From the IMG/VR virus record IMGVR_UViG_3300029194_000183, positions 9,970 through 73,969 of that record: a DNA stretch of 64,000 nucleotides; one strand, given 5' to 3'. The notes under the pieces are model-generated. The model was not told the DNA's origin, searched no databases, and saw nothing but the letters and a program-made list of their open reading frames with translations. Of the stretch, positions 8,989-54,856 are shown one piece after another. A program made the position numbers and the translations under genes. Source of the DNA: a virus. The number at the start of each line of letters is the position of its first letter. Position 1 is the first letter of the stretch.

Positions 8989-9000
8989 GTACTTTTCTCC

Positions 9001-9942
9001 TTATTGCCATTTGGGGTCGCTCAGGACCTTCTGCTGTTCATCATTGTATTTTTTTCGTCCGGAGTGGAGCAAGCCCATCTGAATCATGGTCTGCACACGC
9101 TCGAACTGTTCTCTGCTGACAATGCCTTCATGATGGTCCTCCAGATGAACTTGGGCGCGTTCTCCCCTGTTCCGCTTGCTGTATCGGTGGCCGTTCTTGC
9201 CGTAGGCCGTGTAGTAGCAATCCGTCCAGTAATCCCCCATGTATGCGACATTTTTCAGCATATTGGGTAGTCGATTTCGATTCTGAGACCATGACACACC
9301 GGTATTTTCCTCATCCTCCATCTTATCCAAGCAAGCTCGGATATCTGCGTAGCAGACTCCTTTTGCCGCTTGGTCAAAGGCATAGCGGACACGGCGGGCC
9401 TCGGATTCTTCAATTCTCCATTCACCCTGCTTGTTGACCCTGCGAAAGCCGTAGGTCACACGGCCGGTCGGAATGCCCTGGTCATGGAGATAGGCGATGC
9501 CTGCTCGAACATTCTCACCGATGCTCTTGGACTCCTCCTCGGCAATGATGGCAAGGATGTGGAAGAACAGCTCGCTCTGGCCATTCATCGTGTTAATGCC
9601 CTCTTTTTCAAAAATGACCGGGATGCCCAGCTCTTTCAGCCTACGCACCACGGTCACACAGTCAAGCATATTTCGGGAGAAACGGGAGATGGACTTGGTA
9701 TAGATGATGTCGATTTTGCCATCCATGCAATCTTGAATCATCTGTCGGAATTCCGGCCGACCCTGCGTACTGCGTCCGCTGCCTTCATCCGCATAGACCT
9801 TTACGAGTTCCTCATCGGGGTTATTGGAGAGCAGCTCTGTGAAGTAGCTTTTCTGAATCTCATAGGAACCTTCCTGACACTCCATGCCGGTGCTGACTCT
9901 GCAATAGGCCGCCGCCCTTTTCTGTTTCACTACAATTTCCAT
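9001..9942 (-). CDS. Serine recombinase (first gene of the triplet; shorter, lacks an obvious Zn-ribbon)
   Basis: MEIVVKQKRAAAYCRVSTGMECQEGSYEIQ...KSISRFSRN...ESKSIG. A strong RBS AAGGAGG lies 8 nt before ATG 9942. The longer ORF start at 10023 has no RBS. Confidence 0.85.
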   Translation of the reverse strand: MEIVVKQKRAAAYCRVSTGMECQEGSYEIQKSYFTELLSNNPDEELVKVYADEGSGRSTQGRPEFRQMIQDCMDGKIDIIYTKSISRFSRNMLDCVTVVRRLKELGIPVIFEKEGINTMNGQSELFFHILAIIAEEESKSIGENVRAGIAYLHDQGIPTGRVTYGFRRVNKQGEWRIEESEARRVRYAFDQAAKGVCYADIRACLDKMEDEENTGVSWSQNRNRLPNMLKNVAYMGDYWTDCYYTAYGKNGHRYSKRNRGERAQVHLEDHHEGIVSREQFERVQTMIQMGLLHSGRKKYNDEQQKVLSDPKWQ

Positions 9943-10084
9943 TGCGTCATCCTCCTTGGGGTAGTCGTATAATGCCGCATGTATGGCTGAATAGCAAGTT
10001 CTGTCGCCCAGATAAATCGGCATATTACCGACAAACTATCTGCCTGACAGAACGCCTGAATTGCAGCATATATGACAAATGTAA

Positions 10085-30847: not shown

Positions 30848-30938
30848 AAAGCCCCCTTTCTCGGTTCCTATCTTTATTATACCTCCTGTCAGTGTCAAAT
30901 TCAACACCTAATTTGGTGCTAAATTTTACAATTCCGTC

Positions 30939-40311: not shown

Positions 40312-40337
40312 TGGCTCCCCCTCCTCTCCTCAAAAAA

Positions 40338-40374
40338 TGGGCAAAAGAAAAAGGACCTCCGAAGAAGTCCTTTG
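40338..40374 (-). terminator. Rho-independent terminator upstream of terS
   Basis: Minus strand reads aaaggacttcttcggaggtcctttttctttt: a 7-bp stem, a ttcg loop, then T5CT4. Confidence 0.4.
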
Positions 40375-40433
40375 TATATCAAACACGGTGGATACGAGAC
40401 ACAGCCCCCTGCGGGGCGTGTGTCCTTTGTGAG

Positions 40434-40811
40434 TTATGCGTTGGGGTTGGCTTCTTTCCAGGCCTCGTACTCATCGACCAGCTCTGCCTCCTCGATGACC
40501 TGCCAGACCGCGCAGAATCGGATGCGCTGGTGGGCGATGTCCTCGGCTGTCCAGCTTTCCGGCTCGTGGCTCATGTCGTGGTAGGCGTCCATCTCGGCTT
40601 TCGTCCGCTGGAAAAGGATGTCTTTGAGCCGCAGACTTTCGGCGTTGTTCCGCAGGGTGTATCGCTTGTCGTCTGCCGCCCTGCAAAGCTTGCCAAGGTC
40701 ATCGCAGTTGATACTCATGTCCTGCTTGAATTTGATCTCGATGCCGGTCAGCTCTCGCTCGGTGGCAGCCGCCTGAATGCTGGCAAGGTAGGTTTTGGCT
40801 TTCTTCATCAT
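40434..40811 (-). CDS. Hypothetical early protein
   Basis: GGAGG RBS precedes ATG (MMKKAKTYL...). Preceded by promoter cassette R1. Confidence 0.45.
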   Translation of the reverse strand: MMKKAKTYLASIQAAATERELTGIEIKFKQDMSINCDDLGKLCRAADDKRYTLRNNAESLRLKDILFQRTKAEMDAYHDMSHEPESWTAEDIAHQRIRFCAVWQVIEEAELVDEYEAWKEANPNA

Positions 40812-40837
40812 GGTTCGTTTCCTCCGTGTGTTTTGTT

Positions 40838-40925
40838 TTCCGTAGGGCTTCTCCCCTTCGGTGTGACTGTATATTACCGTCACGGGGGAGGTATATCAAG
40901 CGGCTATGCTGCACGATCATTCGCC
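40838..40925 (-). promoter_or_regulatory. Conserved promoter/leader cassette copy R1 (minus-strand: TTGATA-N17-TAATAT, leader hairpin, GGAGG)
   Basis: Minus strand reads gatcgtgcagcatagccgcTTGATAtacctcccccgtgacggTAATATacagtcacaccgaaggggagaagccctacggaa. Confidence 0.5.
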
Positions 40926-41015
40926 CACAGGCTTGTTGGATTTATGTGTATATCTGCACCCGGAGGATTCACCGCAACGAGCAAAAGCCCCCCGCAGGGA
41001 GCCCCCGCCCATATC

Positions 41016-41300
41016 TCAGTGTGCGTTCCGGATGCACCATTCGATGGCGTGTCCGGCATCCGAGAAGACCTCATCCGAAATCTTCAGCAGTTCCAGCCGG
41101 CACTCGATCGATGAAAGCCCTTCCTTGGGGTCCTCAGCGAATCCGTAAACCGCAGCCTCCACGCTGCCCTTCCAGTTCGTTTTGGCAACCAGAACCCGGT
41201 CGCCAAACTGCAGGATGCTGTCGTTGCAGGGACTGAGCAGGTCGTAGTAGCTCTCGATGCTGATGCTGTGTTCCGGGAAGTTGTTCAGATGCTTCTTCAT
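41016..41300 (-). CDS. Hypothetical early protein
   Basis: RBS GGAGG precedes ATG MKKHLNN. Preceded by cassette R2. Confidence 0.45.
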   Translation of the reverse strand: MKKHLNNFPEHSISIESYYDLLSPCNDSILQFGDRVLVAKTNWKGSVEAAVYGFAEDPKEGLSSIECRLELLKISDEVFSDAGHAIEWCIRNAH

Positions 41301-41317
41301 GGTGAAATCCTCCGTGT

Positions 41318-41413
41318 TTTTTCATTCCGTAGGGTCTTCCCCTTTCGGTATGCACATATTACCGTCATGTGGGGAGGATAGCAAGCGGCTATACTGCACG
41401 ATCATCCGCCCGG
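41318..41413 (-). promoter_or_regulatory. Promoter/leader cassette copy R2 (TTGCTA-N17-TAATAT)
   Basis: Minus strand reads gatgatcgtgcagtatagccgcTTGCTAtcctccccacatgacggTAATATgtgcataccgaaaggggaagaccctacggaa. Confidence 0.5.
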
Positions 41414-41433
41414 AATACCGGGCAGAATGTACA

Positions 41434-41652
41434 TCACTCTCCGTCCTCGGCATCCTGTTCAATGAATTCCCGGATTACTTCATAAAAGAGCTGGGGGTCG
41501 TATTCCAGCGGCTCACGACCTTGAGAAAAATCAATTTCAATCTGGTCCTTGACCATCTCCTTGGCAGCTTCCAGCGTGAAGCCAGCCTTATCCTCGTCAT
41601 TCATATTGTTGTAGATGTCCACGATAAGGTCCATGGCTTTTTCATCGTTCAT
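41434..41652 (-). CDS. Hypothetical small acidic early protein
   Basis: GGAGGaatgagt ATG (MNDEKAMDL...). It has no cassette of its own; a hairpin ccacacag-ccc-ctgtgtgg lies upstream. Confidence 0.4.
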   Translation of the reverse strand: MNDEKAMDLIVDIYNNMNDEDKAGFTLEAAKEMVKDQIEIDFSQGREPLEYDPQLFYEVIREFIEQDAEDGE

Positions 41653-41772
41653 ACTCATTCCTCCGTTGCCCCACCACCTCGCCACACAGCCCCTGTGTGG
41701 GGCTTGTGCGGTTTGGTTGGGGGAGTTTGTTGGCTTGCATCTGCGCCCCCCTTTGTGGGGGCTGTGTCGGGC

Positions 41773-41967
41773 TTACTTCTCCGCCTTGCCCAGAAGGTAG
41801 GCTTCCTCCATGGCTTTCTGGATGCCCCAGACGGGAACCTCGATGAAATCCTCGCTGTCGCAGCCGCGCGCTTCAAGGTCGCCTCGGCTTTCCACCTCCA
41901 CCATCAGGCGCTTTGCGATGTCCAGCAGGGCTTTCTGCTGCTTCTTGGTCAGGGTCTGCTTTTTCAT
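41773..41967 (-). CDS. Hypothetical small early protein
   Basis: MKKQTLTKKQQKALLDIAKRL... Preceded by cassette R3. Confidence 0.4.
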   Translation of the reverse strand: MKKQTLTKKQQKALLDIAKRLMVEVESRGDLEARGCDSEDFIEVPVWGIQKAMEEAYLLGKAEK

Positions 41968-41974
41968 GTCTATG

Positions 41975-42060
41975 TACCTCGCTTTCGTTTTTGTGACTGT
42001 ATATTACCGTCACGTCTCACAGATAGCAAGGCCGCAGATCACACGATCATTCACGCCAGG
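41975..42060 (-). promoter_or_regulatory. Promoter/leader cassette copy R3 (TTGCTA-N17-TAATAT)
   Basis: Minus strand reads aatgatcgtgtgatctgcggccTTGCTAtctgtgagacgtgacggTAATATacagtcacaaaaacgaaagcgagg. Confidence 0.5.
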
Positions 42061-42133
42061 ATCGGTGTATATTTGAGAGTCCAGGCACAGGAAAAGGGGC
42101 CGCCCTTTCAGGCAAGCCCCCGCCGTTTTCTGC

Positions 42134-42583
42134 TCAGTAGTCTTCTTCCTCATCGTAGTCATCTTCGCAGTCGTCGTAGTCCTCTTCCTCATCGCAGCTG
42201 TCGTCCCAGTCTTCCGCCATATCGCGGTAATCCCACATATCCTTGGTGGGCTGGCTGCGAAGGTCGGGGTTCTGCTTGATGTAGTCGGCAACCGCACCCT
42301 CAAGGGTATCCAGAACCTTTTCGTAGGCATCCTCGCTGAAGATCTCCCAAAGGGCTACGGTCAGGCTGCTGATTTCTGCGTTGCCCTTGGCGATCAGGAA
42401 CCGGGCCGCGGGGTTGCAGGTTTCTTTGCCGTAGCCCTGGTTGACCATGTCGCCGTCGTTGAAGAATCGGTACCCGATCCGTGCGGTGGCTCTGACCAGT
42501 TCTCCGGCGAGGCTATCCGCCTTGCCACTCGTGGGAACCAGTTCCTCGAAAAGCTTATTGATGCGGTTTTCATTCTTCGTCAT
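42134..42583 (-). CDS. Hypothetical early protein with a strongly acidic C-terminal tail (possible DNA mimic)
   Basis: The C-terminus reads DMWDYRDMAEDWDDSCDEEEDYDDCEDDYDEEEDY. RBS GGAGG precedes ATG. Preceded by cassette R4. Confidence 0.45.
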   Translation of the reverse strand: MTKNENRINKLFEELVPTSGKADSLAGELVRATARIGYRFFNDGDMVNQGYGKETCNPAARFLIAKGNAEISSLTVALWEIFSEDAYEKVLDTLEGAVADYIKQNPDLRSQPTKDMWDYRDMAEDWDDSCDEEEDYDDCEDDYDEEEDY

Positions 42584-42611
42584 TTTTGTATCCTCCAGCG
42601 TGTTTTTTGTG

Positions 42612-42702
42612 TTTTCCGTGGGGTTTTCCCTTTCGGTATGCACATATTACCGTCACTTTCGTACACTATCAAGCGGCTATGATACACGATCATTCGCCCC
42701 TG
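42612..42702 (-). promoter_or_regulatory. Promoter/leader cassette copy R4
   Basis: Plus strand reads ttccgtggggttttccctttcggtatgcacatattaccgtcac...atcaagcggctatgatacacgatcat, the reverse complement of a TTGATA-N17-TAATAT promoter plus leader hairpin. Confidence 0.5.
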
Positions 42703-42787
42703 GATTTGTGTACATTCGGGCGGTATGACATTGGATGGACACGAGCAAAAGGCCGGTTTCCCAGCCCCTTGCCCCTATCCGTCCGGT

Positions 42788-43048
42788 TTACTTGCGGATT
42801 TCGAGGTAGCTTGTATTGCCCCAGCAATCCGTGGTCTTGAACCGCACCCTCTGCTCGGTTTCCCGGTCGAAGGCAACCTTCCTCAGAAGTTTCATCTTCT
42901 GGATGCGCCGCAGAAGGTCTGCTGCGTTCTCGGCATCTTCGATGGCATCCTGGATCTCGACCACCGAGCAGTCGGTGCCGTACCAAAGGTTGCTGAGTGC
43001 CTCCGGAATGCCGTTGGCAGTGAAAAGTCGGATGTTCGTGTAGGTCAT
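42788..43048 (-). CDS. Hypothetical early protein
   Basis: MTYTNIRLFTANGIPEALSNLWYGTDCSVVEIQD... Preceded by cassette R5. Confidence 0.4.
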   Translation of the reverse strand: MTYTNIRLFTANGIPEALSNLWYGTDCSVVEIQDAIEDAENAADLLRRIQKMKLLRKVAFDRETEQRVRFKTTDCWGNTSYLEIRK

Positions 43049-43059
43049 GGTGTTTATCT

Positions 43060-43138
43060 CCCTTCGTTTTTGTGACTGTATATTACCGTCACTCAGGGGT
43101 GATAGCAAGCGGCTAATGTACACGATCATCTAGCCCAG
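43060..43138 (-). promoter_or_regulatory. Promoter/leader cassette copy R5
   Basis: Plus strand reads gtgactgtatattaccgtcactcaggggtgatagcaagcggctaatgtacacgatcat. Confidence 0.5.
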
Positions 43139-43154
43139 CACTCCGGAAAATGTG

Positions 43155-43709
43155 TCACTTTGCGCCGTCGTGGTATTCCTCGATATACTGCCTTCCGTCC
43201 GGTTCGGTGACCACCGCAGGGTAGCGCACACGGCTGCCGTGCCGGGTCAGGAGCTCGGCGGCAAGGTCTGCAAGTTCTCCGAGGATCTCCATGTTCCATT
43301 GGAGGTCGTCATCCTCCGCCATGACCTTGCAGAATTCATACGCAGCGTTGTAGATCTCATCGTTGCGGGCACTCTGGGCATCCGAAAGCTCCAGTTCCTC
43401 GTCCGTTTCCGGCGCCGTGGATTTCGGGCACTCTGCCCAGCGCCCTTCGTAGGTCTCGCCAGCCTCACAGCCGTCGGCGTCGTATTCGTTGACCCGAACC
43501 CACCGGTTCGACTGGAACACTCGCTCGGTGATGCCGTTCTTCCGGATGCTGAGCATCACCTTCTCCCCATTTTCATTGACACCCCACAGGGCGTCCGGGT
43601 AATCCCCGAACTCCTGAATCATCTGGCGGCGAGTGGCAAGGTCGCCAAAATTGGCGGCCAATACATTGAGCCGGATCGTGTCCAGCTTCTTGTCCAGTTC
43701 CATTTTCAT
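43155..43709 (-). CDS. Hypothetical early protein (184 aa)
   Basis: RBS AAAGGGGAG precedes ATG MKMELDKK. In an operon with 43727–43933. Confidence 0.45.
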   Translation of the reverse strand: MKMELDKKLDTIRLNVLAANFGDLATRRQMIQEFGDYPDALWGVNENGEKVMLSIRKNGITERVFQSNRWVRVNEYDADGCEAGETYEGRWAECPKSTAPETDEELELSDAQSARNDEIYNAAYEFCKVMAEDDDLQWNMEILGELADLAAELLTRHGSRVRYPAVVTEPDGRQYIEEYHDGAK

Positions 43710-43726
43710 GTTCGTTCTCCCCTTTC

Positions 43727-43933
43727 TCAGAATTCCAAGGTCTCCAGAACCTCGTCCGTGCCTGTCTCCCAGTCGTGGCGGGTCAGGCGGATTCGGCTGT
43801 ACATCTCGGCGCTGTCCGGCTCATCGAAAAGCCGGAAGCATTCTCTGGCAACCCCCTCATCGGTGTACTGCTGGGTCTCGTCGGGCTGGCCGTCCAGCCG
43901 GGTGAAGGTGATCTCGTAGGTGTAGCGTTCCAT
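43727..43933 (-). CDS. Hypothetical small early protein
   Basis: RBS GGAAGG precedes ATG MERYTYEITF. Preceded by cassette R6. Confidence 0.4.
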   Translation of the reverse strand: MERYTYEITFTRLDGQPDETQQYTDEGVARECFRLFDEPDSAEMYSRIRLTRHDWETGTDEVLETLEF

Positions 43934-43944
43934 GTTTTTCCTTC

Positions 43945-44030
43945 CTTTCCGTTTCGGTATGTGCATATTACCGTCGTTTCGGCATAATAGCAAGGCCATA
44001 AAACGTCATATTATCGACGATCATCAGCTC
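43945..44030 (-). promoter_or_regulatory. Promoter/leader cassette copy R6 (TTGCTA-N17-TAATAT)
   Basis: Minus strand reads gatgatcgtcgataatatgacgttttatggccTTGCTAttatgccgaaacgacggTAATATgcacataccgaaacggaaagg. Confidence 0.5.
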
Positions 44031-44039
44031 ATATCTTTG

Positions 44040-44138
44040 GTAGATCTATGTCGATAAATGGCCTTGATAAATATGTGTTTTAGAGCGAATATACAGACAC
44101 CGAAAGGAAAACACACACGGAAAACGGAGGCAGCCACC
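44040..44138 (+). promoter_or_regulatory. Plus-oriented copy (R6') of the promoter/leader cassette, back-to-back with R6
   Basis: Plus strand reads tcgataaatggccTTGATAaatatgtgttttagagcgAATATAcagacaccgaaaggaaaacacacacggaaaacGGAGGcagccacc ATG. Confidence 0.5.
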
Positions 44139-44387
44139 ATGAAAAAGACCATCAGCGAGATTGAAAGCATCATCGAGGACCGCATTGCAGAGCTTGAAGA
44201 AGAATACGAGCTGGACATTTTCGACCGCAACGACATTCGGGAAGAAGAATACCGCAAGGGCGGTTGGAAACACGACCCCTTCCCCGAAGAACTGGAGGAG
44301 GAAGAGGACGAGGAAGAAGAATGGCATTACATGAGCCTTGAGCAGCAGCTCTACGAAGTCGGCATGAGCATGCGGGATTTCCTTTAA
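44139..44387 (+). CDS. Hypothetical acidic protein (82 aa), the only plus-strand gene in the early region
   Basis: GGAGG RBS precedes ATG MKKTISEIESIIEDRIAELEEEYELD...EELEEEEDEEEEWHYM. Followed by a hairpin terminator. Confidence 0.45.
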   Translation: MKKTISEIESIIEDRIAELEEEYELDIFDRNDIREEEYRKGGWKHDPFPEELEEEEDEEEEWHYMSLEQQLYEVGMSMRDFL

Positions 44388-44404
44388 GGGAATCCGCCAA
44401 GGAA

Positions 44405-44450
44405 CCCCCAGCAAAGGCTGGGGCTGTTCCTCGTTGTCCCCGTTTTCCGT
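44405..44450 (+). terminator. Plus-strand terminator after 44139–44387
   Basis: ccccagcaaaggctgggg stem-loop followed by ctgttcctcgttgtccccgttttcc. Confidence 0.35.
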
Positions 44451-44479
44451 TGACCATATACACAGTTCTGTTTCCGTAA

Positions 44480-44545
44480 GATTGTGGAAGATCCTGCTCT
44501 TTCCCGGCTTGCTATTCTTGCAAACCAGAGCTAATATACAGTAAA
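44480..44545 (+). promoter_or_regulatory. Orphan plus-strand copy of the promoter cassette (TTGCTA-N17-TAATAT) with no downstream ORF
   Basis: Plus strand reads cccggcTTGCTAttcttgcaaaccagagcTAATATacagtaaactgggaaaggg. It shares the TAATATacagt leader start with R1, R3 and R5. Confidence 0.4.
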
Positions 44546-44635
44546 CTGGGAAAGGGTTCTCGACGATCCGAGGCCCCCACCAGCCCACAAGCCAGCCCCT
44601 CCTGCCTTGGCAGAAGGGGCCGTTTTCTTTATTCG
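44545..44635 (+). ncRNA. Candidate ~90-nt small RNA (orphan promoter to intrinsic terminator)
   Basis: The predicted TSS lies about 7 nt after TAATAT. The terminator is cccctcctgcc-tt-ggcagaagggg followed by ccgttttctttattc. There is no ORF with an RBS in between. Confidence 0.25.
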
Positions 44636-45000
44636 GGCTGTGTGCCGTCGCTGGTTTGGATGGCTGCGAGTCCCGATGCGGTGCGAACGAAAAGTTCCGG
44701 ATTCCAGAACCGTTTCCTGAACCTGTCCATGAGTTCCGGCGACAAGTCCGTGAAGTCTTCCTCACCCACCCCGCAGAGGAAGAAGCTACCTCGGATCGGC
44801 TGTTTCAGTTCCCGGATATACCGGCTGAACAGCTTATCCGTAAACAGTCCGTTGTCATCCGTGACCAGGGCGACCGGTTCCGGCCACGGGTATGTCGCCG
44901 TGATGCAGTCGCAGTCCAGCACCTTATAGTATTCTTCCAGCGTGGGCTGGATATCGATCTCCTTCGGATGTTCCATCGGCTCGACCAAAAGCACCTTCAT
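44629..45000 (-). CDS. DUF3846-like protein
   Basis: MKVLLVEPMEHPKEIDIQPTLEEYYKVLDCDCITATYPWPEPVALVTDDNGLFTDK...GSFFLCGVGEEDFTDLS matches the DUF3846 pattern. ATGA overlap with the upstream gene. Confidence 0.5.
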   Translation of the reverse strand: MKVLLVEPMEHPKEIDIQPTLEEYYKVLDCDCITATYPWPEPVALVTDDNGLFTDKLFSRYIRELKQPIRGSFFLCGVGEEDFTDLSPELMDRFRKRFWNPELFVRTASGLAAIQTSDGTQPE

Positions 45001-45456
45001 TCGACCCACCCCGCTTTCACGATTGCCCAGTCGGTCAGCGGTGTTGCTTCTCCAAGAAAGTCTTCCATCGCTTCGACCGTACCGCAGGTGTTGCACACCA
45101 TGATCTCTGCGTAGCGGCTGAGGGCTTGCTGCTGGTGGTCGTAACAGTCCGGCTCAGCGCCGCACCGTGGGCAACGTGGGCCCGCCTGTCGCGCCTTACC
45201 GAGGTGGTCGAGCGATTCCTTTACCTCGGTCTCGGACGCCACACGGTGGCAACTGTCCGCACCGTAGGCAACGTTCAGGCTGCCGCCTGTATCCCAGGAA
45301 ACCATCACATTGCCGGCATCGTCCACACCACGGCAGGTTCCCTGCGTGCCCAAGGCCGGTGCCTGGGCATCTTCCATTCGGTCCAGCACCACACGGCAGC
45401 CGACCGGGAACTGTGTCCGCAGAGTTTCTACGGTCTTTCTATCCGGAAATCTCATC
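44997..45456 (-). CDS. DUF4314-like protein with C-terminal Zn-ribbon
   Basis: FPVGCRVVLDRMEDAQAPALGTQGTCRGVDDAGNVMVSWDTGGSLNVAYGADS is the DUF4314 pattern, followed by CPRCG...CNTCG. The start overlaps the GGCT gene stop (ATGA), with an AAGGAGG RBS. Confidence 0.5.
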
Positions 45457-45934
45457 CCTGCACCTCCTTGATCATCTTCTCCGCGAGTTTCTTGTTGTTG
45501 GTACACTTCTTCAGTGCGCCCTCCAAGATGTGCATCGGGAAATGAAATGCCTTATAGCCATCGTGAAGGACTCGATAGTAGTACAGACTCGGCATTTTCT
45601 GCCCATAGTCGTGTTCCATGATATAGACCATGGCGGTGACGGTCATGGGCTCCGCATCCTTGCTCACCACCTCGACCGTCATATTTTCCTTGCGGTAGTA
45701 GTGCGGGAAGCCCTCATAGATGTCGAGGTTCTTCTCATCGCCAGCGGAGATTTCCCACACCAGGACCGGTGTGTTCTTTCCCTTGTTCGGCAGGATGGTC
45801 GCGCAGCCGTGGAAGGCCAGCTCCCAGTCTTCCAAAACAGCCTGGCCCACAATGCGGGCATCCGGGCACCGCTGTGCCATCTGCTCCACCGACAAGTTGC
45901 TGCCGTATGCGATGTAATACTTCTTTTCGTTCAT
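45452..45934 (-). CDS. GGCT/AIG2-like gamma-glutamyl cyclotransferase family protein (copy 1)
   Basis: YYIAYGSNL hallmark, then PVLVWEISAGDEKNLDIYEGFPHYY with the catalytic-Glu motif. Preceded by cassette R7. Confidence 0.7.
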   Translation of the reverse strand: MNEKKYYIAYGSNLSVEQMAQRCPDARIVGQAVLEDWELAFHGCATILPNKGKNTPVLVWEISAGDEKNLDIYEGFPHYYRKENMTVEVVSKDAEPMTVTAMVYIMEHDYGQKMPSLYYYRVLHDGYKAFHFPMHILEGALKKCTNNKKLAEKMIKEVQG

Positions 45935-45944
45935 AGTCGCTTGC

Positions 45945-46045
45945 TCCTTTCGTTTCCGCTGTTGTCTGGCGGTATGCTATATATGCCTCTGTTTTGCCCG
46001 AATAGCAAGGCCAATGTGCATCATATCCTGCACAATGATTTCCTC
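45945..46045 (-). promoter_or_regulatory. Promoter/leader cassette copy R7 (TTGCTA-N19-TATATA; more divergent)
   Basis: Minus strand reads attggccTTGCTAttcgggcaaaacagaggcaTATATAgcataccgccagacaacagcggaaacgaaaggagc. Confidence 0.4.
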
Positions 46046-46066
46046 ACAGGATCGGCAAAATTGTAC

Positions 46067-46608
46067 TCAGTCGATTTCTTTGAGGAACTCCACCGCTGCC
46101 GCCTTTCCGATGCTGGAAGACAGCCCACTGTGCAATGTATCTGTCGGGAATCCCCACTCCGTATACCCGTCTGCCAATAAGTCGAAGTACTCATGGCTGG
46201 GGCAGCCGAGCTGCCTTTCTTCGTGTAAGATGTATGCCATACAGGTTTTCAGCTTCTTCATCCGATGCCCATCCAGATTCCAGACGGGAAGCTGGAACTG
46301 CTTCTTGTAATAGTACCGAGGGCAGCCCTCATACCGATCCAGCAGCAGTTCATCAAACTCGGAAAGCAGCCATACCACAGCTGGGACGCTTTCATTGGCA
46401 TCCTGCTCGATGGTGGCGTAGCACCCAGTCTTGCTTTTCTTGAACAGGAGTCGGTATCCGTAGATTTCGGTAACACCGACCGGCACCGCATAGGGGCATC
46501 TGTGCCCCATCCGCTCCATGTCAAGGTTGCTGCCGTAGGCAAGATAGTACCGGGACGGCTTTCTGCTGATCCCACCCTTGTCGAACCGGAAGTGATCAAT
46601 CACCGACC
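46067..46608 (-). CDS. GGCT/AIG2-like cyclotransferase family protein (copy 2); start approximate (probable GTG)
   Basis: SRYYLAYGSNLDMERMGHRCPYAVPVG...PAVVWLLSEFDELLLDRYEGCPRYYY. The upstream part of the ORF overlaps the small gene 46596–46826. Confidence 0.6.
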
Positions 46609-46826
46609 TCACCGCCTTCCGCTGCGGAAAAGTCCACGCCGTCAAAGTCCTCAGCTTCCAGAACGATCTGTCCGTTGTGCCACCAGTCGCTGACCGCCTG
46701 GACGGCCTCATCCATCGTGGGTTCCTTGATCTCAGATTCGTTGACCTCGACCACCCGTTTGAGGGTCTCGGTGATGACCACCCGGAACGTTCTGCCGGGT
46801 GCGGTTTCTCTGGTTTCATTTTTCAT
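46596..46826 (-). CDS. Hypothetical small acidic protein (76 aa)
   Basis: Strong RBS GAAGGAGG precedes ATG MKNETRETAP. Sits between the amidoligase and GGCT copy 2. Confidence 0.4.
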   Translation of the reverse strand: MKNETRETAPGRTFRVVITETLKRVVEVNESEIKEPTMDEAVQAVSDWWHNGQIVLEAEDFDGVDFSAAEGGEVGD

Positions 46827-46896
46827 GGCGTATCGCCCTCCTTCTACCGCCTAAAGGGCGGTTGCCCGCCCGATAGGTGCCCGTGCAAGTCGGCGC

Positions 46897-47832
46897 TTAT
46901 GCGTTGCGCCAGCTTGCGTTGCCCTCCATATTCCGCAGAAGGATCTCCCGTGCTGTTTTGAACTCGTCCCCGATGAAACCCAGCCGAAGCATCCAGCACC
47001 GCATTGCGTATTTCTCGTTGTCAGTCTGCTGGGGCTTGGGGCTTGCGGTCTTCACCATCTTGGCAAGCTGGCTCATTGCGAGGCAAAGCTGGATGTAGGC
47101 TTTCAGCTCACCGGCGTGCAGTCCGTTCTGCTTGCCGTCGCTGGGGTCGGCAAACTGGAAAAGCCGGAATTCAATCGTGCCCTTGGTGAAGGTGGCGTGG
47201 AGGTTCAGCATATGGTATCGGCTTTCATTGTAATGTGCCGTTCTGCCGTAGTCTGCGTGGTTGCCGGCGTACCAGATGTCGGCAAGCTCAGTCATGGTCG
47301 TCGGCTTTCTCTTGTTCAGCTGGTCAAGGAATCGGGGGTCGACCACTCGGCAGTACTGTCCGGTTCTGCCTGCATCGATGCGAATCGCTCTGCCGATCTG
47401 TTCTTCGTGGGCGGCCATGATGTTGACCAGATTCCGCAGGGTCTTGGGGGTGTGGCTACCCTTGCCGATGTGGATGTGAACGCCGCATCCCCGGCTGGGG
47501 CTGGACTTTGCGCCAGCCTTGCGGAGCAGTCGGATGATTGCCTGCAAGGTCTCGATGTCCTCGTAGGTAAGGATGGGGGTCACCATCTCGCACTTTTCAG
47601 CTTCCGGTCCGTGGATGCTGATGTCTCGCTGGAATTTCCAAACCCTGCCCTGCTGGTCCTTGCAAGCCCAGCTCATGTACCCGTACTCGCCGGCTGCGTA
47701 CCATGCGGTCGTTCCGAAGAACTCGGCAACCTTTCTGGCGGCTTTCTCGCGGGTGATGTTGTTCATCTCAACCTCGACCCCGATGGTCTGCATCTTCATG
47801 GCTTCGATCTGCTCTCTGGTCTTATCGTTCAT
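46897..47832 (-). CDS. Amidoligase_2-family protein (glutamine-synthetase/GCS2-like fold), putative
   Basis: IGVEVEMNN...CEMVTPIL...GCGVHIHIG show the E-x-E and H-x-H metal/ATP-site-like motifs. RBS AAAGGAG precedes ATG MNDKTREQ. Preceded by cassette R8. Confidence 0.6.
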   Translation of the reverse strand: MNDKTREQIEAMKMQTIGVEVEMNNITREKAARKVAEFFGTTAWYAAGEYGYMSWACKDQQGRVWKFQRDISIHGPEAEKCEMVTPILTYEDIETLQAIIRLLRKAGAKSSPSRGCGVHIHIGKGSHTPKTLRNLVNIMAAHEEQIGRAIRIDAGRTGQYCRVVDPRFLDQLNKRKPTTMTELADIWYAGNHADYGRTAHYNESRYHMLNLHATFTKGTIEFRLFQFADPSDGKQNGLHAGELKAYIQLCLAMSQLAKMVKTASPKPQQTDNEKYAMRCWMLRLGFIGDEFKTAREILLRNMEGNASWRNA

Positions 47833-47849
47833 GGTGTTTATCTCCTTTT

Positions 47850-47945
47850 GTCTTGTTCTGTTCCCCTTGCGGTATGTGCATATTACCGTCATGTGGGGAG
47901 GATAGCAAGGCCATAAAGGGTCAAATAATCACCGATCATTCAAGG
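47850..47945 (-). promoter_or_regulatory. Promoter/leader cassette copy R8 (TTGCTA-N17-TAATAT)
   Basis: Minus strand reads tgtacacgatctttgccttgaatgatcggtgattatttgaccctttatggccTTGCTAtcctccccacatgacggTAATATgcacataccgcaagggg. Confidence 0.5.
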
Positions 47946-48063
47946 CAAAGATCGTGTACATTATGGCAAAAAACACACTTGATACTGTACATTTTCAGAG
48001 TTAATATCGGTACAATGGAAGAAGCTCTCTCTTATCCGGCGGTCCCCATAAGGGGTCAGGAGC

Positions 48064-49215
48064 TTACGCTCCCGCCTCCTGTGCCTGGGGTGCGCCGTCT
48101 GCCCCACAGTCGGGCTGTGTGGGGGCTTCCGCTGCCGCTTCGGCCGTTTCCTCGGCGGCAGAAACGCCGCCGTGTGCCGCCTGTTTTGCGGCTTTCAGGG
48201 CATCTCGCTTAGCCTTTTCCTTAACCCGGAACTTTTCGGCATCTTCCTCGGTGCGGAATGCCGCATGACCGGAAAGGTTCTGCATCAGGAGTTTGCGGAT
48301 GGTCTTGTGTTCATCTCCGTTCAGACCCAGTCGGATCAGCCAGATGCGGAGTGCGTACTTCTCATTGGCATCGTTGATGGTCTTTGCCTGGATTCGCTTC
48401 TGAGCGATTGCCATCCGGTTCATGGCGGCGCAGAGTTCCGTGTAGGCACGGACCTTCTCCTGCGTCAGCGGACCGGCAAAAGCCAGGCTGATCTTCTCCG
48501 CCGTGATCTGGATGCCGGTCATGCCGGTGGTACCGGCACCCAGGCGGTATTCTTCCAGCTCATCCAGCATTTCGCTCACCGTATGGGGCGTTGCCTGTTC
48601 CAGTGCGTCCAGAAGTCCCTGCGACACCGTGAAGTTCGTACCCATCGCTTTGTTCAGCAGAGGGCCTCGGCTGTACATGAGGTTCAGGAAATTCCGCAGG
48701 CTCTGGGCGGTATGCCCGGACATCGGCAGGCTGATGGTCAGCTCATCCACATCCTGCAAGGTCGGCTGTTCGGTCGGAGCAGGTGCCTCATCCGCATCGG
48801 TGTCATTCACAGTGTCCATCGGCTTGTTCTCGTCCACCGGTTCCTGAGCTTCCGGGGATTCCACGGCAGTTGTGTCCGGTTCCTCGGTGGGCTGGATATC
48901 CTCGGTGATGTCCACGGTCTCATCCGACCCTTCGCACTCCGATTCCGAGCTCTCCTCGCAGGCGGTTTCGGTTTCCGAGGTCTCCGGGGTCTCCGCGCCT
49001 TCCTCACGGATAATGCCCTCGTCCAGCAGCGTCCGGATGATCTCCGGCGCAGCGTTATCTTCGATCACAAGCGTTCCCTCCTTTTCTACTGTGTAACTGC
49101 CGACGATGTAAGCGCAGCGCGGCATGAAAGTGTACCGGGAATGAAGCCCGGTCAACTCCATCAGGCGGCTTACCAGAACCTTGCGGTCATCAATATTCAG
49201 TGCGTACTTTTTCAT
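48064..49215 (-). CDS. Amidoligase-paralog protein with acidic N-terminal region (possibly non-catalytic)
   Basis: The C-terminal 200 aa (SGHTAQSLRNFLNLMYS...NEKYALRIWLIRLGLNGDEHKTIRKLLMQNLSGHAAFR) align with the C-terminal half of 46897–47832 (GSHTPKTLRNLVNIMAA...NEKYAMRCWMLRLGFIGDEFKTAREILLRNMEGNASWR). It lacks the N-terminal E-x-E region. Preceded by cassette R9. Confidence 0.45.
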   Translation of the reverse strand: MKKYALNIDDRKVLVSRLMELTGLHSRYTFMPRCAYIVGSYTVEKEGTLVIEDNAAPEIIRTLLDEGIIREEGAETPETSETETACEESSESECEGSDETVDITEDIQPTEEPDTTAVESPEAQEPVDENKPMDTVNDTDADEAPAPTEQPTLQDVDELTISLPMSGHTAQSLRNFLNLMYSRGPLLNKAMGTNFTVSQGLLDALEQATPHTVSEMLDELEEYRLGAGTTGMTGIQITAEKISLAFAGPLTQEKVRAYTELCAAMNRMAIAQKRIQAKTINDANEKYALRIWLIRLGLNGDEHKTIRKLLMQNLSGHAAFRTEEDAEKFRVKEKAKRDALKAAKQAAHGGVSAAEETAEAAAEAPTQPDCGADGAPQAQEAGA

Positions 49216-49234
49216 GGCTTTGTGCCCCTTTCTT

Positions 49235-49335
49235 TGTTTTCGGTAGCACATATATCGCTCTGAATCGATGAAATAGCAAGGCCATTTCTCGACATTCTTC
49301 ATATTCGACCTTTTACACGATCCGTACAAAACACG
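49235..49335 (-). promoter_or_regulatory. Promoter/leader cassette copy R9 (TTGCTA-N19-TATATG; divergent)
   Basis: Minus strand reads ggatcgtgtaaaaggtcgaatatgaagaatgtcgagaaatggccTTGCTAtttcatcgattcagagcgaTATATGtgctaccg. Confidence 0.4.
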
Positions 49336-49419
49336 ACTGTGCAAGATCATCCGATATGTACGCCCACGGTATCACGGGGTAGCCTTTACCTCGTAATACA
49401 GTGGGCCATTTTATTGGTT

Positions 49420-50238
49420 TCAGCCGACTCTTGCTTCCAGCGCAGCGATGCGCTGCTCAAACTCAGCCGTCTTATTTTCCAGAGCTTCCAGACGCTCGGC
49501 CTCGGTCAGGGGCTTTTTCTCCTCGTCAAGGATCAGGTAGCGTTCCATGACGTAACCGGGAATGGTCTCATAAGTCACAGCGCACCAGCCATCTTCCTGC
49601 CCGATCACGTCCAGCCGGGCACCGTTGGGAATCCAGGCAAGACGGTCAGCGGTTCTTTCGGGAGCCTGCCGCAGACTCAATCTTCCGCCCGTAACGGTTG
49701 CCTTGCAATGAACTGCCAGCATATTGACCTTTTCCATCTCTACCTTCTCCTCTCGATTACTTTTATAGTTGATGCCTTTCAGCCGGCCGCCGAACTTCCA
49801 CCTGCCCAGAACTGAGTCACGGTGGATGCTGTTTCCTTCCACGCTGGTGGAGCAATGGGTGATCTCCAGCGGATGCACTCTTGTGATCACGCCCACATGG
49901 TAGTAGTCCCGCAGGTCTCCGGTACAGTTTACACCTCCCGACTTGTACCGGTCCGGCAAACTGTAGCTGCTGTCGCCGGGGTTCCGGGCTTTGAATACGA
50001 TCTCACCCACGAACAAGTGTGCGGTTTTGAGTTTCACAAAGTCCGCCATCTGTTTCCGGGCTGCGTAGTTACTGCCGTGGTAGCCGTTCCAGCTTCCACC
50101 GGCTCTGCGGACTGCGCCGATGATAAGACCAATGCAGTCACAGGTACCATCCGTACCGCTGCCGCCGATGCGATAGTCTGGTTTCGTAGCACAGATGGTC
50201 TCGAGCTGCTCAAGAAAAGCAGTCAGGGTGATGCTCAC
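49420..50238 (-). CDS. NlpC/P60-like papain-fold cysteine peptidase with SH3b-like domain and C-terminal coiled coil
   Basis: GTDGTCDCIGLIIGAV carries the Cys nucleophile context, and ...YYHVGVITRVHPLEITHCS the His. The SH3b-like segment reads GGRLSLRQAPERTADRLAWIPNGARLDVIGQEDGWCAVTY. GTG start overlaps the MTase stop (GTGA). Confidence 0.5.
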   Translation of the reverse strand: MSITLTAFLEQLETICATKPDYRIGGSGTDGTCDCIGLIIGAVRRAGGSWNGYHGSNYAARKQMADFVKLKTAHLFVGEIVFKARNPGDSSYSLPDRYKSGGVNCTGDLRDYYHVGVITRVHPLEITHCSTSVEGNSIHRDSVLGRWKFGGRLKGINYKSNREEKVEMEKVNMLAVHCKATVTGGRLSLRQAPERTADRLAWIPNGARLDVIGQEDGWCAVTYETIPGYVMERYLILDEEKKPLTEAERLEALENKTAEFEQRIAALEARVG

Positions 50239-54611: not shown

Positions 54612-54622
54612 GTAGTCCTCCT

Positions 54623-54856
54623 TCACACGCACATGACCTCAGAGAACGGCACGAAAAAGGAGCCGAACTGAAAGCCCGACTCCAACTCATCGCTATCCCC
54701 GCCCATCTCCGACTGCGGCTTTTCCGTAATCGGATACCACTCCGGGTTCTCCCCGTTCATGGAGGCAAGGACCCTGTCCTCTGCATGATCGATCTCATGT
54801 ACGCAGATGCCCCCGGTGTTGAACATCGGGAACACGCCGATTGTCTTATTCTCCAT
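54623..54856 (-). CDS. Hypothetical small protein (77 aa)
   Basis: RBS AAAGGAG 9 nt before ATG MENKTIGVF. Confidence 0.35.
   Translation of the reverse strand: MENKTIGVFPMFNTGGICVHEIDHAEDRVLASMNGENPEWYPITEKPQSEMGGDSDELESGFQFGSFFVPFSEVMCV

Follow-up and report, generated by a model that had tools for sequence, protein, structure and literature searches.

The PeSL elements of T4-type phages are composed of an inverted repeat, a sigma-70 promoter, a Shine-Dalgarno (SD) sequence and an ATG, and are repeated across a variable gene region in which they have been linked to indels (PMC2839356, PMC4122927). Their stem-loop has been read as a weak bidirectional terminator or insulator, and the authors left site-specific recombination as a possibility (PMC2839356, PMC4122927). 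The locus described here, part of a 64,000-nucleotide stretch of viral DNA (the window), matches this architecture (PMC2839356, PMC4122927), and the remark of the initial annotation that it did not recognise a known arrangement here is therefore not upheld.

A profile search revealed 12 copies of the module within 40.8-49.3 kb of the window, with E-values of 1e-11 to 1e-20 that are in part self-hits, the profile having been built from window copies. In the remaining 55 kb the same profile detected nothing comparable except one weak match (9948-10038), so that the previous count of at least 11 becomes 12, plus a degenerate 13th copy near 10 kb. The exact pattern TTGMTA-N17-TAATAT was found nine times, always between positions 40871 and 48007, against 0.01 matches expected by chance (100 dinucleotide shuffles of the full 64-kb window). 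The repeats are thus confirmed, and they lie where they had been reported. The module is longer than the ~85 bp given initially (~125-150 bp), and there are two orphan copies rather than one, both on the plus strand (-35 at 44509 and 47979). Nine minus-strand copies are placed directly upstream of a gene or short operon, in a gene set with which independent gene calls agree, and R6' is indeed the single plus-strand copy that precedes a gene (Table 1). The window copies form three subfamilies: A (R1-R5), B (R6, R8) and C (R7, R9, R6', O1, O2).

Table 1. Coordinates of the module copies and associated features in the window
Feature	Span	Strand	Dyad or U-box	-35	-10	Unit driven	Remarks
R1	40809..40950	-	left arm 40943-40950; right arm (U-box) 40910-40917	TTGATA 40894-40899	TAATAT 40871-40876	G1 (40434-40811)	leader with GGGG/CCC hairpin, then GGAGG, ATG 40809-40811
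R2	41298..41433	-	U-box 41395-41402; left arm degenerate, TGTACATT, ~21 nt upstream of U-box	TTGCTA 41379-41384	41356-41361	G2 (Nmad4, 41016-41300)	
R3	41965..42069	-	TACACCGA-N14-ATCGTGTG, 42040-42069	42024-42029	42001-42006	G4 (DUF6900, 41773-41967) + G3 (41434-41658)	leader short, unstructured
R4	42581..42712	-	TACACAAA-N14-ATCGTGTA, 42683-42712; best dyad of the window	TTGATA 42667-42672	42644-42649	G5 (42134-42583; tail acidic)	leader 5' end ACCGAAAGGGAAAAC
R5	43046..43156	-	U-box 43119-43126	43103-43108	43080-43085	G6 (42788-43048)	leader short; homology breakpoints vs relatives at 43058-43061, 43090, 43131
R6	43931..44141 (back-to-back with R6')	-	degenerate, in common with R6', 44014-44042	43988-43993	43965-43970	G7-G8 (43155-43933)	
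R6'	43931..44141 (back-to-back with R6)	+	in common with R6	44064-44069		82-aa acidic gene (44139-44387)	
O1	44459..44632	+	TACACAGT-N14-ATTGTGGA, 44459-44488	44509-44514	44532-44537		orphan
R7	45932..46067	-	U-box 46029-46036	46003-46008	variant, cAGAGg + CATATA	GGCT1 - DUF4314 - DUF3846 (44629-45934)	
R8	47830..48075 (back-to-back with O2)	-	in common with O2, 47929-47958	47903-47908	47880-47885	Amidoligase_2 - DpnD/PcfM - GGCT2 (46067-47832)	
O2	47830..48075 (back-to-back with R8)	+	in common with R8	47979-47984	48002-48007		orphan; points into G11 3' end
R9	49213..49343	-	TGCACAGT-N14-ATCGTGTA, 49314-49343; 34 nt from -35	49274-49279	variant	G11 (48064-49215)	
13th copy, degenerate	9940..10044	-				precedes first recombinase gene	CTTGCTAT-N16-GCGGCATTATAC ... 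AAGGAGG; 20 bits, E = 0.008
Three tandem large serine recombinases	9001-9942, 7477-8988, 6273-7487						
Cargo array	40434..49215	-					15 minus-strand genes + one plus-strand gene
Strong intrinsic terminator	40350..40373	-					UUCG-type loop + T-run; G1/terS gap; closes array

The cargo genes are short and their products for the most part acidic (pI 4.0-6.3, the amidoligase at 9.2 excepted), and the Pfam families represented are Nmad4, DUF6900, DUF3846, DUF4314, GGACT (twice), DpnD/PcfM and Amidoligase_2; the genes are read as accessory, with a putative anti-defence role, and their designation as early in the initial annotation is an assumption. The array is flanked by DNA-modification genes on one side and by terS on the other, and the terminator in the G1/terS gap is also present in the Selenomonadales relative L156. 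The ~85 nt located 3' of O1 are ORF-free and fold as two hairpins with a T-run at the end (z = -2.2), which show compensatory changes in orthologues. Downstream of O2 there is no credible ORF; this copy is kept in relative L031. The -10 variant of the 13th copy is that of the R6'-type copies of the relatives.

In the promoter core, a -35 element (cTTGMTAT) and a -10 element (TAATAT or GAATAT) are separated by 17 nt, the 3' end of the spacer being conserved as GTGACGG or CAGAGnG (the G at -14 is common to both). Among 113 representatives that share less than 80% identity, the information content has its maxima at the -35, the spacer 3' end, the -10 and positions +1 to +15, and is near zero elsewhere. 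The combination of gtgacgg and TAATAT, originally assigned to all copies, does not extend to R7, R9 and R6', which carry cAGAGc with GATATA or GAATAT. The description of near-consensus sigma-70/sigma-A type promoters, one ahead of each unit, holds; because hexamers and spacing are near consensus, we infer that the promoters are read by host sigma-A RNA polymerase.

On balance we favour the interpretation that the modules are portable host-sigma-A expression heads for accessory genes, which double as recombination homology. Such a head comprises, in order, the dyad, a 10- or 20-nt gap, the -35, the 17-nt spacer, the -10, a leader most likely starting with ACCGAAAGGG, GGAGG and ATG. Host sigma-A RNA polymerase would act at each head, and one small gene or short operon would thereby be strongly transcribed and translated from starts of its own, while one dimeric protein bound at the dyads would co-regulate every unit. 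With a start of its own for each unit, and a recognisable terminator at approximately half of the units, the array would represent a series of autonomous, moron-like units; that the other half have no such terminator speaks against this interpretation. Since the head (~100 nt) is repeated in direct orientation, homologous recombination from one head to another could delete, insert or swap the cargo.

Comparison with relatives indicates how widely this arrangement is distributed. A profile search of related viral contigs yielded 581 copies in 80 contigs, and the module is conserved across related phage and prophage contigs of Clostridia and Selenomonadales, which number in the hundreds; the carrier is a very common gut-bacterial prophage, whose single annotated relative is classed in Ca. 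Heliusvirales. At the loci that were inspected, the genes on either side of the module region are those for DNA methyltransferase and terminase. Contigs spanning the whole array contain 11-12 copies where the amidoligase is at least 85% identical; there are 10 copies per contig at 77-78% and 1-4 at 68-72% amidoligase identity. When genomes were scanned with the -10 + ACCGAAAGGGAAAA core, at least 120 loci were recovered; the module profile is matched at 102 of the 120 listed, an amidoligase gene is also present at 68 of the 120 and a TerL gene at 56 of the 120. Among the scan matches listed there are up to 9 module copies per 8 kb, and the hosts are Oscillospiraceae, Lachnospiraceae, Ruminococcus and Selenomonadales.

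The conserved boxes outside the -35 and -10 hexamers, first proposed from the window, are present in the relatives scanned down to a TerL identity of 63%, and these blocks survive where amidoligases are 68-78% and TerL proteins 63-97% identical. Such conservation in distant relatives reflects selection rather than chance or recent duplication. It is thus highly improbable that the similarity stems from recent local duplication of one ordinary promoter, with extra boxes devoid of function: the subfamilies do look like a duplication history, and the copies of certain genomes are highly uniform (0.76 in L156, 0.66 in L144), but the blocks are kept across bacterial orders, with proteins 63-70% identical and inter-block sequence not conserved, and L078 retains its modules despite flanking cargo without detectable DNA similarity. 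Copies within a genome are barely more alike than copies from different genomes (upstream 0.43 vs 0.37; core 0.60 vs 0.57), and ongoing homogenisation therefore appears weak in the window's genome. As part of the expression-head interpretation, we consider it probable that the arrangement has been kept by selection throughout this lineage of Clostridia/Selenomonadales prophages related to Ca. Heliusvirales phages.

The upstream aTGATCGTGyA box is likewise conserved, but it constitutes only the promoter-proximal arm (U-box) of an inverted repeat with the consensus ATAAAnTACACAAT-N14-ATTGTGTAnTTTAT. The arms are 14 nt or, less commonly, ~24 nt apart, and the distance from the U-box to the -35 is 10 nt in 126 modules and 20 nt in 94; these classes may go back to one or two ancestral indels each, rather than to repeated selection for helical phase. 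An inverted partner arm was found in 56 of 83 representatives (spaced by 14 nt in 41 of them and by 23-25 nt in 13), compared with 14 of 113 in shuffles and 11 in a direct-orientation control. The arms are conserved, with a variable spacer between them. Complementary arm positions amount to 75%, vs 26-54% in slid registers, and arm-to-arm covariation shows no excess, its value being equal to that of shuffled sequences, and each half-site is thus conserved in its own right. Of 138 exact matches to the dyad in viral contigs, 110 were within 90 nt of a module, and in phage NatCom_991 the dyad occurs at modules exclusively.

The dyad is most likely a site for one dimeric protein that would co-regulate all units; this protein could be phage- or host-encoded and could act as an activator or a repressor. 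The suggestion of a shared DNA-binding factor thereby gains indirect support from the independently conserved half-sites and their set distances, in contrast to the RNA-binding alternative considered below. No candidate regulator was found: the proteins of the cargo array (40434..49215) are acidic and include no helix-turn-helix protein, and no dyad lies beside a regulator gene in one relative scanned over 34 kb.

The inverted repeat might instead act as a weak bidirectional terminator or insulator, with the layout A-tract, stem, 14-nt loop, stem, T-tract. The arrangement ATAAA-n-TACACAAT ... ATTGTGTA-n-TTTAT is that of bidirectional intrinsic terminators, the dyad has a mean MFE of -7.6 kcal/mol (mean z -1.9; z < -2 in 54% of copies) and is situated after one unit and ahead of the promoter of the following one, and PeSL stem-loops occupy the same position (PMC2839356, PMC4122927). 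We regard this as distinctly unlikely, given AU-rich stems with loops of 14-25 nt, a T-rich part within rather than 3' of the palindrome, and set 10/20-nt distances to the -35 that are unexpected for a terminator. Moreover, the arms lack covariation (A/C mismatches are as frequent as compensated changes), and R1, R3 and R4 possess GC-rich terminators of their own, separate from the dyad and upstream of it.

The leaders (25-55 nt) share the 5' start ACCGAAAGGG, are A-rich and mostly unstructured, and continue into GGAGG (Shine-Dalgarno) and ATG; the transcript most likely starts at ACCGAAAGGG, ~7 nt past the -10. Their U content is 3% in the window, where the sense strand around them has 18%, and 4% family-wide (375 unique leaders, 166 of which begin with CCGAAAGGG). 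The hairpin described as a conserved part of the module is confined to a minority: three of the 10 gene-driving window copies and, in its G3+/C3+ form, 53 of 371 unique leaders (14%). Most leaders fold at ~0 to -2 kcal/mol. A fold more stable than that of shuffles was seen for R1 alone (z = -2.9), R2 and R4 being indistinguishable from them (z = -1.1 and -1.3, respectively); six of the other seven window leaders lie at 0 to -4.8 kcal/mol, all with z between -1.1 and +0.6.

These data bear on the idea that the shared device is RNA, so that one factor (antiterminator, chaperone or ribosome) would act on a boxB/nut-like leader hairpin or on the ACCGAAAGGG start and control inter-cassette read-through or mRNA stability. 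Apart from the R1 fold, this idea is favoured by ACCGAAAGGG(A)AAAC (~+1 to +15), the best-conserved block after the hexamers, by strong terminators between units and ahead of terS, and by loops in the hairpins (e.g. GAAGA, GAAAA) that are similar to those of lambda boxB. Polypurine 5' stabilisers are known from phage SP82, among others. The SD-like GAAAGGG at the leader 5' end resembles Bacillus STAB-SD sequences and such stabilisers (PMC4113751, PMC3997798); this version is compatible with expression heads and hence no true rival. The hairpin, however, is missing from orthologous slots in close relatives (e.g. W5 in L053), covariation equals that of shuffled leaders, an Rfam search gave no family match and no N-like protein rich in arginine was recognised. 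The data do not support the hairpin as a device common to the modules, and the antiterminator or RNA-chaperone reading of the initial annotation is therefore unsupported; we consider an RNA device unlikely overall, though it is the foremost of the alternatives.

Turning to the expression heads as recombination homology, we found that cargo between modules has been swapped, lost or fused among relatives. In L077, which lacks G7-G8, a hybrid promoter joins the upstream half of R6 to the downstream half of R5, the crossover being located within GACGGTAATAT. In L053 a replacement of the G7-G8 unit is bounded by the R6 leader and the R5 U-box edge, a divergent Nmad4 allele takes the place of the G2 ORF in L040, and in L078 the small-gene DNA is all non-homologous, the modules are kept and G4 and G6 are fused. 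The hybrid promoter and the module-bounded replacements bear out the earlier notion of a recombination-prone scaffold; recombination between heads is directly shown in one event (L077) and is probably general. Breakpoints coincide with cassette boundaries in part: in the small-gene region 21 of 23 clusters lie at gene boundaries and 11 in modules (the R6/R6' pair has six), but array-wide the modules hold just 18 of 74 clusters in 15% of the length, an enrichment of only ~1.6-fold. Selection against broken ORFs alone would produce a bias towards gene boundaries.

An integron-like site-specific system, with an attC-like dyad and a recombinase such as a prophage serine recombinase, would account for one imperfect palindrome per cassette, the uniform cassette orientation, cargo that varies among relatives and the module-like promoter ahead of the recombinase genes, and the PeSL authors left such recombination open (PMC2839356, PMC4122927). 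We nevertheless judge it very improbable: breakpoints are scattered (leader, -10, -35, U-box edge) rather than at one dyad position, the sole clean junction (L077) crosses in the -10 region, the 41 close relatives are largely syntenic with five patterns only, and the recombinases are encoded 30 kb away, where the prophage ends and integrases would be expected.

The module array also differs from integron cassettes in that each cassette has its own promoter. Its element order is the same as that of the T4-type PeSLs, with the dyad placed like the PeSL stem-loop relative to the promoter, and the module can be regarded as a Gram-positive temperate-phage variant of these elements.

The repeats described in the initial annotation are real: a module composed of a dyad, a −35/N17/−10 promoter and a leader precedes a Shine-Dalgarno (SD) sequence and an ATG in nine minus-strand (R1-R9) and one plus-strand (R6') intergenic regions. 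The exact pattern TTGMTA-N17-TAATAT was found nine times (0.01 occurrences are expected from shuffled sequences), and variant −35/−10 forms, sigma-70-like and with a spacer of approx. 17 nt, in three further copies. A profile built from the copies detected 12 modules between 40.8 and 49.3 kb, where at least 11 had been claimed; the sole other match in the window is weak and lies before the first serine recombinase gene. The claim of a single orphan had to be corrected: two copies, O1 and O2, both on the plus strand, lack an ORF. The nine gene-driving minus-strand copies carry GGAGG, GAGG or AAGG(AG) 8-12 nt upstream of the ATG, and R6' likewise has GGAGG upstream of its ATG. The coordinates of the features are collected in the table below.

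Location of the module array and of other features within the window
Feature	Position	Strand	Remarks
Serine recombinase genes	6273-9942	-	
Degenerate module	9940-10044	-	upstream of the recombinase genes
Weak profile match	9948-10038		before the first serine recombinase
ParE/Phd toxin-antitoxin pair	30244-30907	-	within the structural gene block
G1-terS gap	40311-40434	-	GC hairpin and UUCG-loop terminator
TTGMTA-N17-TAATAT, all nine exact copies	40871-48007		
G4 (DUF6900)	41773-41967		
G6	42788-43048		
O1 (orphan)	44509-44632	+	−35 at 44509
Amidoligase	46897-47832	-	
O2 (orphan)	47979-48075	+	−35 at 47979
G11	48064-49215	-	
Three DNA methyltransferases	50235-54632		
S-adenosylmethionine synthetase	55911-56978	-	adjoins the methyltransferases
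MazF/PemK-domain protein	59874-60563	-	229 aa; adjoins the methyltransferases
Possible regulator ORF	60686-61123	-	145 aa

The window copies sort into three subfamilies: (i) R1-R5, with ATGATCGTG-N12-TTGMTA and, further downstream, GTGACGG TAATAT, (ii) R6 and R8, with TTTATGGCC TTGCTA followed by GACGG TAATAT GCACATACCG, and (iii) R7, R9, R6', O1 and O2, with cAGAGc ahead of a variant −10 element. Palindromes around the −10 element (GTGAC-N11-GTCAC, CGGTA-N9-TACCG) were rejected as an operator, being present in some window copies only and not conserved in the CAGAGCG-type. A degenerate module (CTTGCTAT ... GCGGCATTATAC ... AAGGAGG) was also seen upstream of the recombinase genes, and the integrase genes may therefore be driven by a promoter of this class as well.

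From approx. 6 to 64 kb, the window is occupied by a prophage whose genes are encoded on the minus strand, apart from one plus-strand unit in the array. The array is preceded by genes for an SNF2 helicase, then a D5/NrS-1-type primase-helicase, S-adenosylmethionine synthetase and HNH protein, then three DNA methyltransferases and an SH3 protein; it is followed by terS (P27 type), terL, portal and structural genes, holin and endolysins, and three tandem large serine recombinases. The prophage is one with serine recombinases, a P27-type TerS and HK97-like modules. Its nearest annotated relatives are the "NatCom" gut phages, of which the NatCom_991 record is classed in Ca. Heliusvirales, and the description of that group makes no mention of promoters or intergenic repeats. 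The nearest named genome locus among the matches listed is that of Lawsonibacter asaccharolyticus (TerL 97% identical). An index of public assemblies lists the exact protein of G5, one of the array's cargo genes, in 4116 blocks, so this prophage is very common. Many metagenomic contigs of the relatives (L050, L059, L060, L062, L064, L072 and others) stop inside the array, where short-read assemblies were probably broken by the repeated modules or by strain variation. The prophage also carries a ParE/Phd toxin-antitoxin pair, a protein with a MazF/PemK domain and its own S-adenosylmethionine synthetase.

Relatives gathered via the amidoligase (80 viral contigs, 68-100% identity) contained 581 modules detectable with the window-derived profile. 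Their number per contig was 11-12 at an amidoligase identity of at least 85% (contigs spanning the whole array), 10 at 77-78% and 1-4 at 68-72%. When one genome per species was scanned with the pattern AATAT-N6-8-ACCGAAAGGGAAAA, at least 120 loci were obtained. Among the matches listed, 102 of 120 loci fitted the module profile (with up to nine copies in 8 kb), the hosts were Oscillospiraceae, Lachnospiraceae, Ruminococcus, Acutalibacteraceae and Selenomonadales, and the amidoligase, TerL and DUF4314 were co-encoded at 68, 56 and 56 of the 120 loci, respectively. These counts make the module a hallmark of the methyltransferase-terminase stretch in this phage lineage. A scan of viral contigs with the exact motif TTGMTA-N11-GACGGTAATAT was of little use: it returned 29 contigs with one match each, only one of which (L027) fits the profile (E < 0.01), and most of them therefore look like chance matches.

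Conservation was measured on representatives less than 80-85% identical (75 in one set, 113 in the other). The information sits in four blocks: (i) cTTGMTAT, corresponding to the −35 element, (ii) the last five bases of the spacer, GACGG or AGAGn, with a common G at −14, (iii) TAATAT or GAATAT, the −10 element, and (iv) ACCGAAAGGGAAAAC, which begins approx. 7 nt downstream of the −10 element. Variation is tolerated in the 5′ half of the spacer and in the remainder of the leader. This pattern persists in phages whose proteins are just 63-78% identical, which favours selection over recent duplication as its source. Concerted evolution was set aside as evidence, within-genome similarity being barely above that between genomes. 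These comparisons argue that the module is a real, selected, lineage-wide regulatory cassette, whose promoter is presumably strong and recognized by sigma-A.

The conserved aTGATCGTGyA box noticed upstream of the promoters was confirmed (family consensus WTYGTGYA), but it is not the whole element: the box forms the right, promoter-proximal arm (U-box) of a dyad. Its distance from the −35 element is 10 nt in 126 unique modules and 20 nt in 94, with 18 more at 18-19 nt. The reverse complement of the U-box was found upstream in 56 of 83 box-bearing representatives (gap of 14 nt in 41 and of 23-25 nt in 13 of these 56), while the controls gave 14/113 (shuffled) and 11 (direct orientation). In the aligned dyad, ATAAAnTACACAAT-N14-ATTGTGTAnTTTAT, the arms are conserved and the spacer is variable, and arm complementarity reaches 75%, compared with 26-54% in slid registers. 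Covariation between the arms was the same as in the shuffled control, and A/C mismatches were as common as compensated changes, which indicates that the half-sites are conserved independently, as for the site of a dimeric protein, and not as a selected hairpin.

The placement of the dyad is consistent with co-regulation of the modules. A single dyad is common to each back-to-back promoter pair (R6/R6' and R8/O2), most exact dyad matches in viral contigs (110 of 138) have a module no more than 90 nt away, and in NatCom_991 (34 kb scanned) the dyad occurs at the two modules only. GATC (Dam-type) methylation of the U-box was rejected, as GATC is confined to the clade of the window and most relatives have TTTGTGTA. 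No DNA-binding protein was found among the array products by PHROGs, Pfam or NCBIfam, nor was a dyad found near a regulator gene in NatCom_991. Elsewhere in the window, a 145-aa ORF, weakly similar to region 4 of SigH, a sporulation sigma factor (E = 0.007), could encode a sigma-like or RinA-type phage regulator; it has no relationship to the protein annotated as "transcriptional regulator" in NatCom_991. If our reading of the dyad is true, these 42 bp constitute a well-defined candidate operator, which could serve directly as bait for its regulator.

The leader hairpin, proposed as a shared element of all copies, was rejected as such for its folding, frequency and covariation. It is present in 53 of 371 unique leaders (14%), within the window only in R1, R2 and R4, and is missing from the orthologous slots of close relatives. 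Only R1 folded better than its shuffles (z = −2.9; other window leaders, −1.3 to +0.6), no covariation was detected in the hairpin, and Rfam gave no match except a sub-threshold one to the terminator before terS. This also separates the module from the nut site of lambda, in which a conserved boxB hairpin is present in every regulated transcript and is served by an N-like antiterminator: here, a hairpin found in so few leaders shows no covariation, and no candidate N-like protein was found.

What the leaders do share is how they begin and how they are composed. They start with CCGAAAGGG in 166 of 375 unique cases, and U makes up 3% of their bases in the window and 4% across the family, compared with 18% in the surrounding sense strand. 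Such an A-rich leader without U cannot pair, and the ribosome-binding site therefore stays open. Most copies have GAAAGGG at approx. +4 to +10 from the predicted start, SD-like and at the 5′ end, as are the STAB-SD or polypurine stabilizers of Bacillus, in which an SD-like polypurine near the transcript 5′ end stabilizes the downstream RNA (PMC4113751, PMC3997798). By analogy, we conjecture that GAAAGGG might act as a 5′ stabilizer.

O1 and O2 have related predicted transcript starts (AAyTGGAAGAGGGGTCTCG ... CGAGGCCCC), which can form hairpins, and each faces the 3′ end of a minus-strand operon that converges with it. The O1 orthologues of distant relatives (L144, L218, L077, L073) preserve the hairpin by compensatory changes and often have a T-run behind it. 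The orphan transcripts matched no Rfam family; they could be non-coding RNAs of approx. 45-90 nt or conserved "empty" promoter-terminator units.

Comparison of the array between relatives revealed several ways in which its gene content has changed. In the viral contig L077, the upstream half of R6 (the module of G7-G8) merges into the downstream half of R5 (that of G6) within the common GACGGTAATAT, and G7-G8 are absent, which matches the product expected from homologous recombination between direct copies. In L053, an unrelated 78-aa gene replaces the G7-G8 unit, from the R6 leader to the edge of the R5 U-box; L040 has a divergent Nmad4 allele in place of the G2 ORF, and L041, counted among the replacements, has an additional small cassette. 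In L078, all of the small-gene DNA is non-homologous, yet approx. eight modules are kept and some cargo families recur in a different order. The same contig encodes DUF6900 (G4) fused to G6 in one ORF of 166 aa behind a single module (approx. 10937-11584); in the window, G4 and G6 are individual genes, each with its own promoter.

The suggestion that the modules serve as a recombination scaffold is supported by the hybrid promoter of L077 and by the cassette replacements. In the small-gene part of the array, 21 of 23 breakpoint clusters fall at gene boundaries and 11 in modules; the signal of the whole array is only modest (18 of 74 clusters in modules, which make up 15% of its length). The weakness of the latter comes from distant relatives, in which many HSPs end where conserved genes have diverged. 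The scatter of breakpoints within modules fits homologous rather than site-specific recombination. Integron cassettes are promoterless and end in an imperfect palindrome that is recombined at a fixed position by an adjacent integrase, whereas each cassette of the array has its own promoter, the breakpoints are scattered, the one clean junction (L077) lies in the −10 element and no integrase adjoins the array. The morons of lambdoid prophages (Juhala et al. 2000; Hendrix) are autonomous units of promoter, gene and terminator inserted between phage genes. The array units are likewise autonomous, but morons are single and mutually unrelated, while here approx. ten units with one conserved head are arrayed.

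In the gap between G1 and terS, a GC hairpin is accompanied by a strong terminator with a UUCG loop. This terminator, downstream of which no terS promoter is visible, is almost the same in a relative from the Selenomonadales (L156). The junction is an insertion hot spot, occupied by a Phd/PIN toxin-antitoxin pair in L357 and by approx. 1.5 kb in L040; in L358, an HNH/AP2 endonuclease gene lies between terS and terL.

The cargo proteins are small, mostly acidic and do not have the look of DNA-binding regulators. Pfam identified Nmad4, DUF6900, DUF3846, DUF4314, two GGACT proteins, DpnD/PcfM and Amidoligase_2; the others have no family, PHROGs adding just "unknown function". G11, without a Pfam family, aligns with the central part of PHROG 2443 ("amidoligase enzyme", a profile of 801 positions), and its C-terminal segment is shared with the neighbouring amidoligase via the DNA repeats D8 and D10; from these matches, the two genes resemble fragments of a larger multi-domain protein of other phages. 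DpnD/PcfM, DUF4314, DUF3846 and Amidoligase_2 are typical of Firmicute conjugative elements. The main text of PMC11541004, a study of plasmid leading regions, does not mention them. The cargo genes may be expressed early and may act against host defences.

The array lies directly upstream of terS. In a cos/pac phage packaging from terS, it would be packaged last and injected first, and its transcription would be directed at the entering end; with a promoter per gene, each gene could therefore fire after the entry of a few hundred bases. A single dyad-binding protein would switch the whole set on or off, e.g. silence the array in the lysogen. The contig ends gave no information on the physical genome ends (cos/pac), so we can only infer that the array enters the cell ahead of the other DNA. 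The proposal that the dyad and the promoter head form a dedicated regulon of the phage "entry end", fired at entry and governed by one dyad-protein switch, is a tentative one, to which we assign a low probability. Independently of this proposal, if our main reading of the module is right, the dyad and the −10 + ACCGAAAGGG core would provide a handle for finding variable accessory or anti-defence arrays in a very prevalent group of human gut and rumen prophages. The module would also be a compact, apparently strong and portable part, promoter plus U-free 5′ UTR, that could serve the engineering of Oscillospiraceae and Lachnospiraceae, for which expression parts are few.

To our knowledge, neither a common upstream dyad nor a U-free leader has been described for the host-takeover module of the Bacillus phage SPO1. 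This module is a functional parallel in a Firmicute phage. According to PMC6873191, its genes, most of them small, are also organized in many short operons, each equipped with the kind of promoters and ribosome-binding sites that highly expressed genes have (Stewart et al. 1998, as cited there); it differs in belonging to a virulent phage, in lying within the terminal redundancy and in that its early timing and host shut-off functions have been demonstrated.

The anti-defence islands in the leading regions of conjugative plasmids (Samuel et al. 2024, PMC11541004; PMC13478746) resemble the array in that small accessory genes are clustered, dedicated promoters recur and the sequence is adapted to fast expression. 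In their Frpo/ssi promoters, the −35 and −10 elements arise when single-stranded DNA pairs with itself in a long hairpin (PMC11541004); the module hexamers are collinear on the duplex, separated by 17 nt, and no long hairpin spans them. Were the entry-end proposal true, the array would be a dsDNA phage counterpart of the plasmid leading region (Frpo), conserved across a very widespread lineage of human gut phages.

The arrangement had not been recognized as a described one, but the PeSL (promoter-early stem-loop) elements of T4-type myoviruses (Arbiol et al. 2010, PMC2839356; Comeau et al. 2014, PMC4122927) have the same architecture and are linked to gene turnover in the same way. In both, (i) an inverted repeat lies upstream of a sigma-70-type −35/N17/−10 promoter, followed by an SD and a start codon, before small genes of unknown function, (ii) the elements are concentrated in a variable region and adjoin insertions, deletions and replacements between close relatives, and (iii) an intervening gene is removed by recombination between tandem copies, the DNA between two PeSLs being excised as a mini-circle (PMC2839356, PMC4122927).

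There are also clear differences. PeSL phages are virulent T4-like myoviruses, whereas the modules reside outside the Tquatrovirinae, in temperate, integrase-carrying prophages of Gram-positive hosts (Clostridia, Selenomonadales) related to Ca. Heliusvirales phages; their consensus differs from the published PeSL ones. The PeSL stem-loop is interpreted as terminating the gene before it (PMC2839356, PMC4122927). Here, the inverted repeat is AU-rich, with a 14-nt loop and separate GC-rich terminators upstream, which makes a terminator role of the dyad doubtful; its conserved sequence, fixed 14-nt spacer, fixed distance from the −35 element and lack of covariation make it look like a protein site instead. 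The modules have extra conserved blocks, namely the spacer's 3′ end and +1 (ACCGAAAGGG with the U-depleted leader), and conservation is lineage-wide, while that of PeSLs is seen within pairs of close relatives. If our reading is true, cassette shuffling of the PeSL type extends past T4-like phages to the temperate phages of Gram-positive anaerobes.
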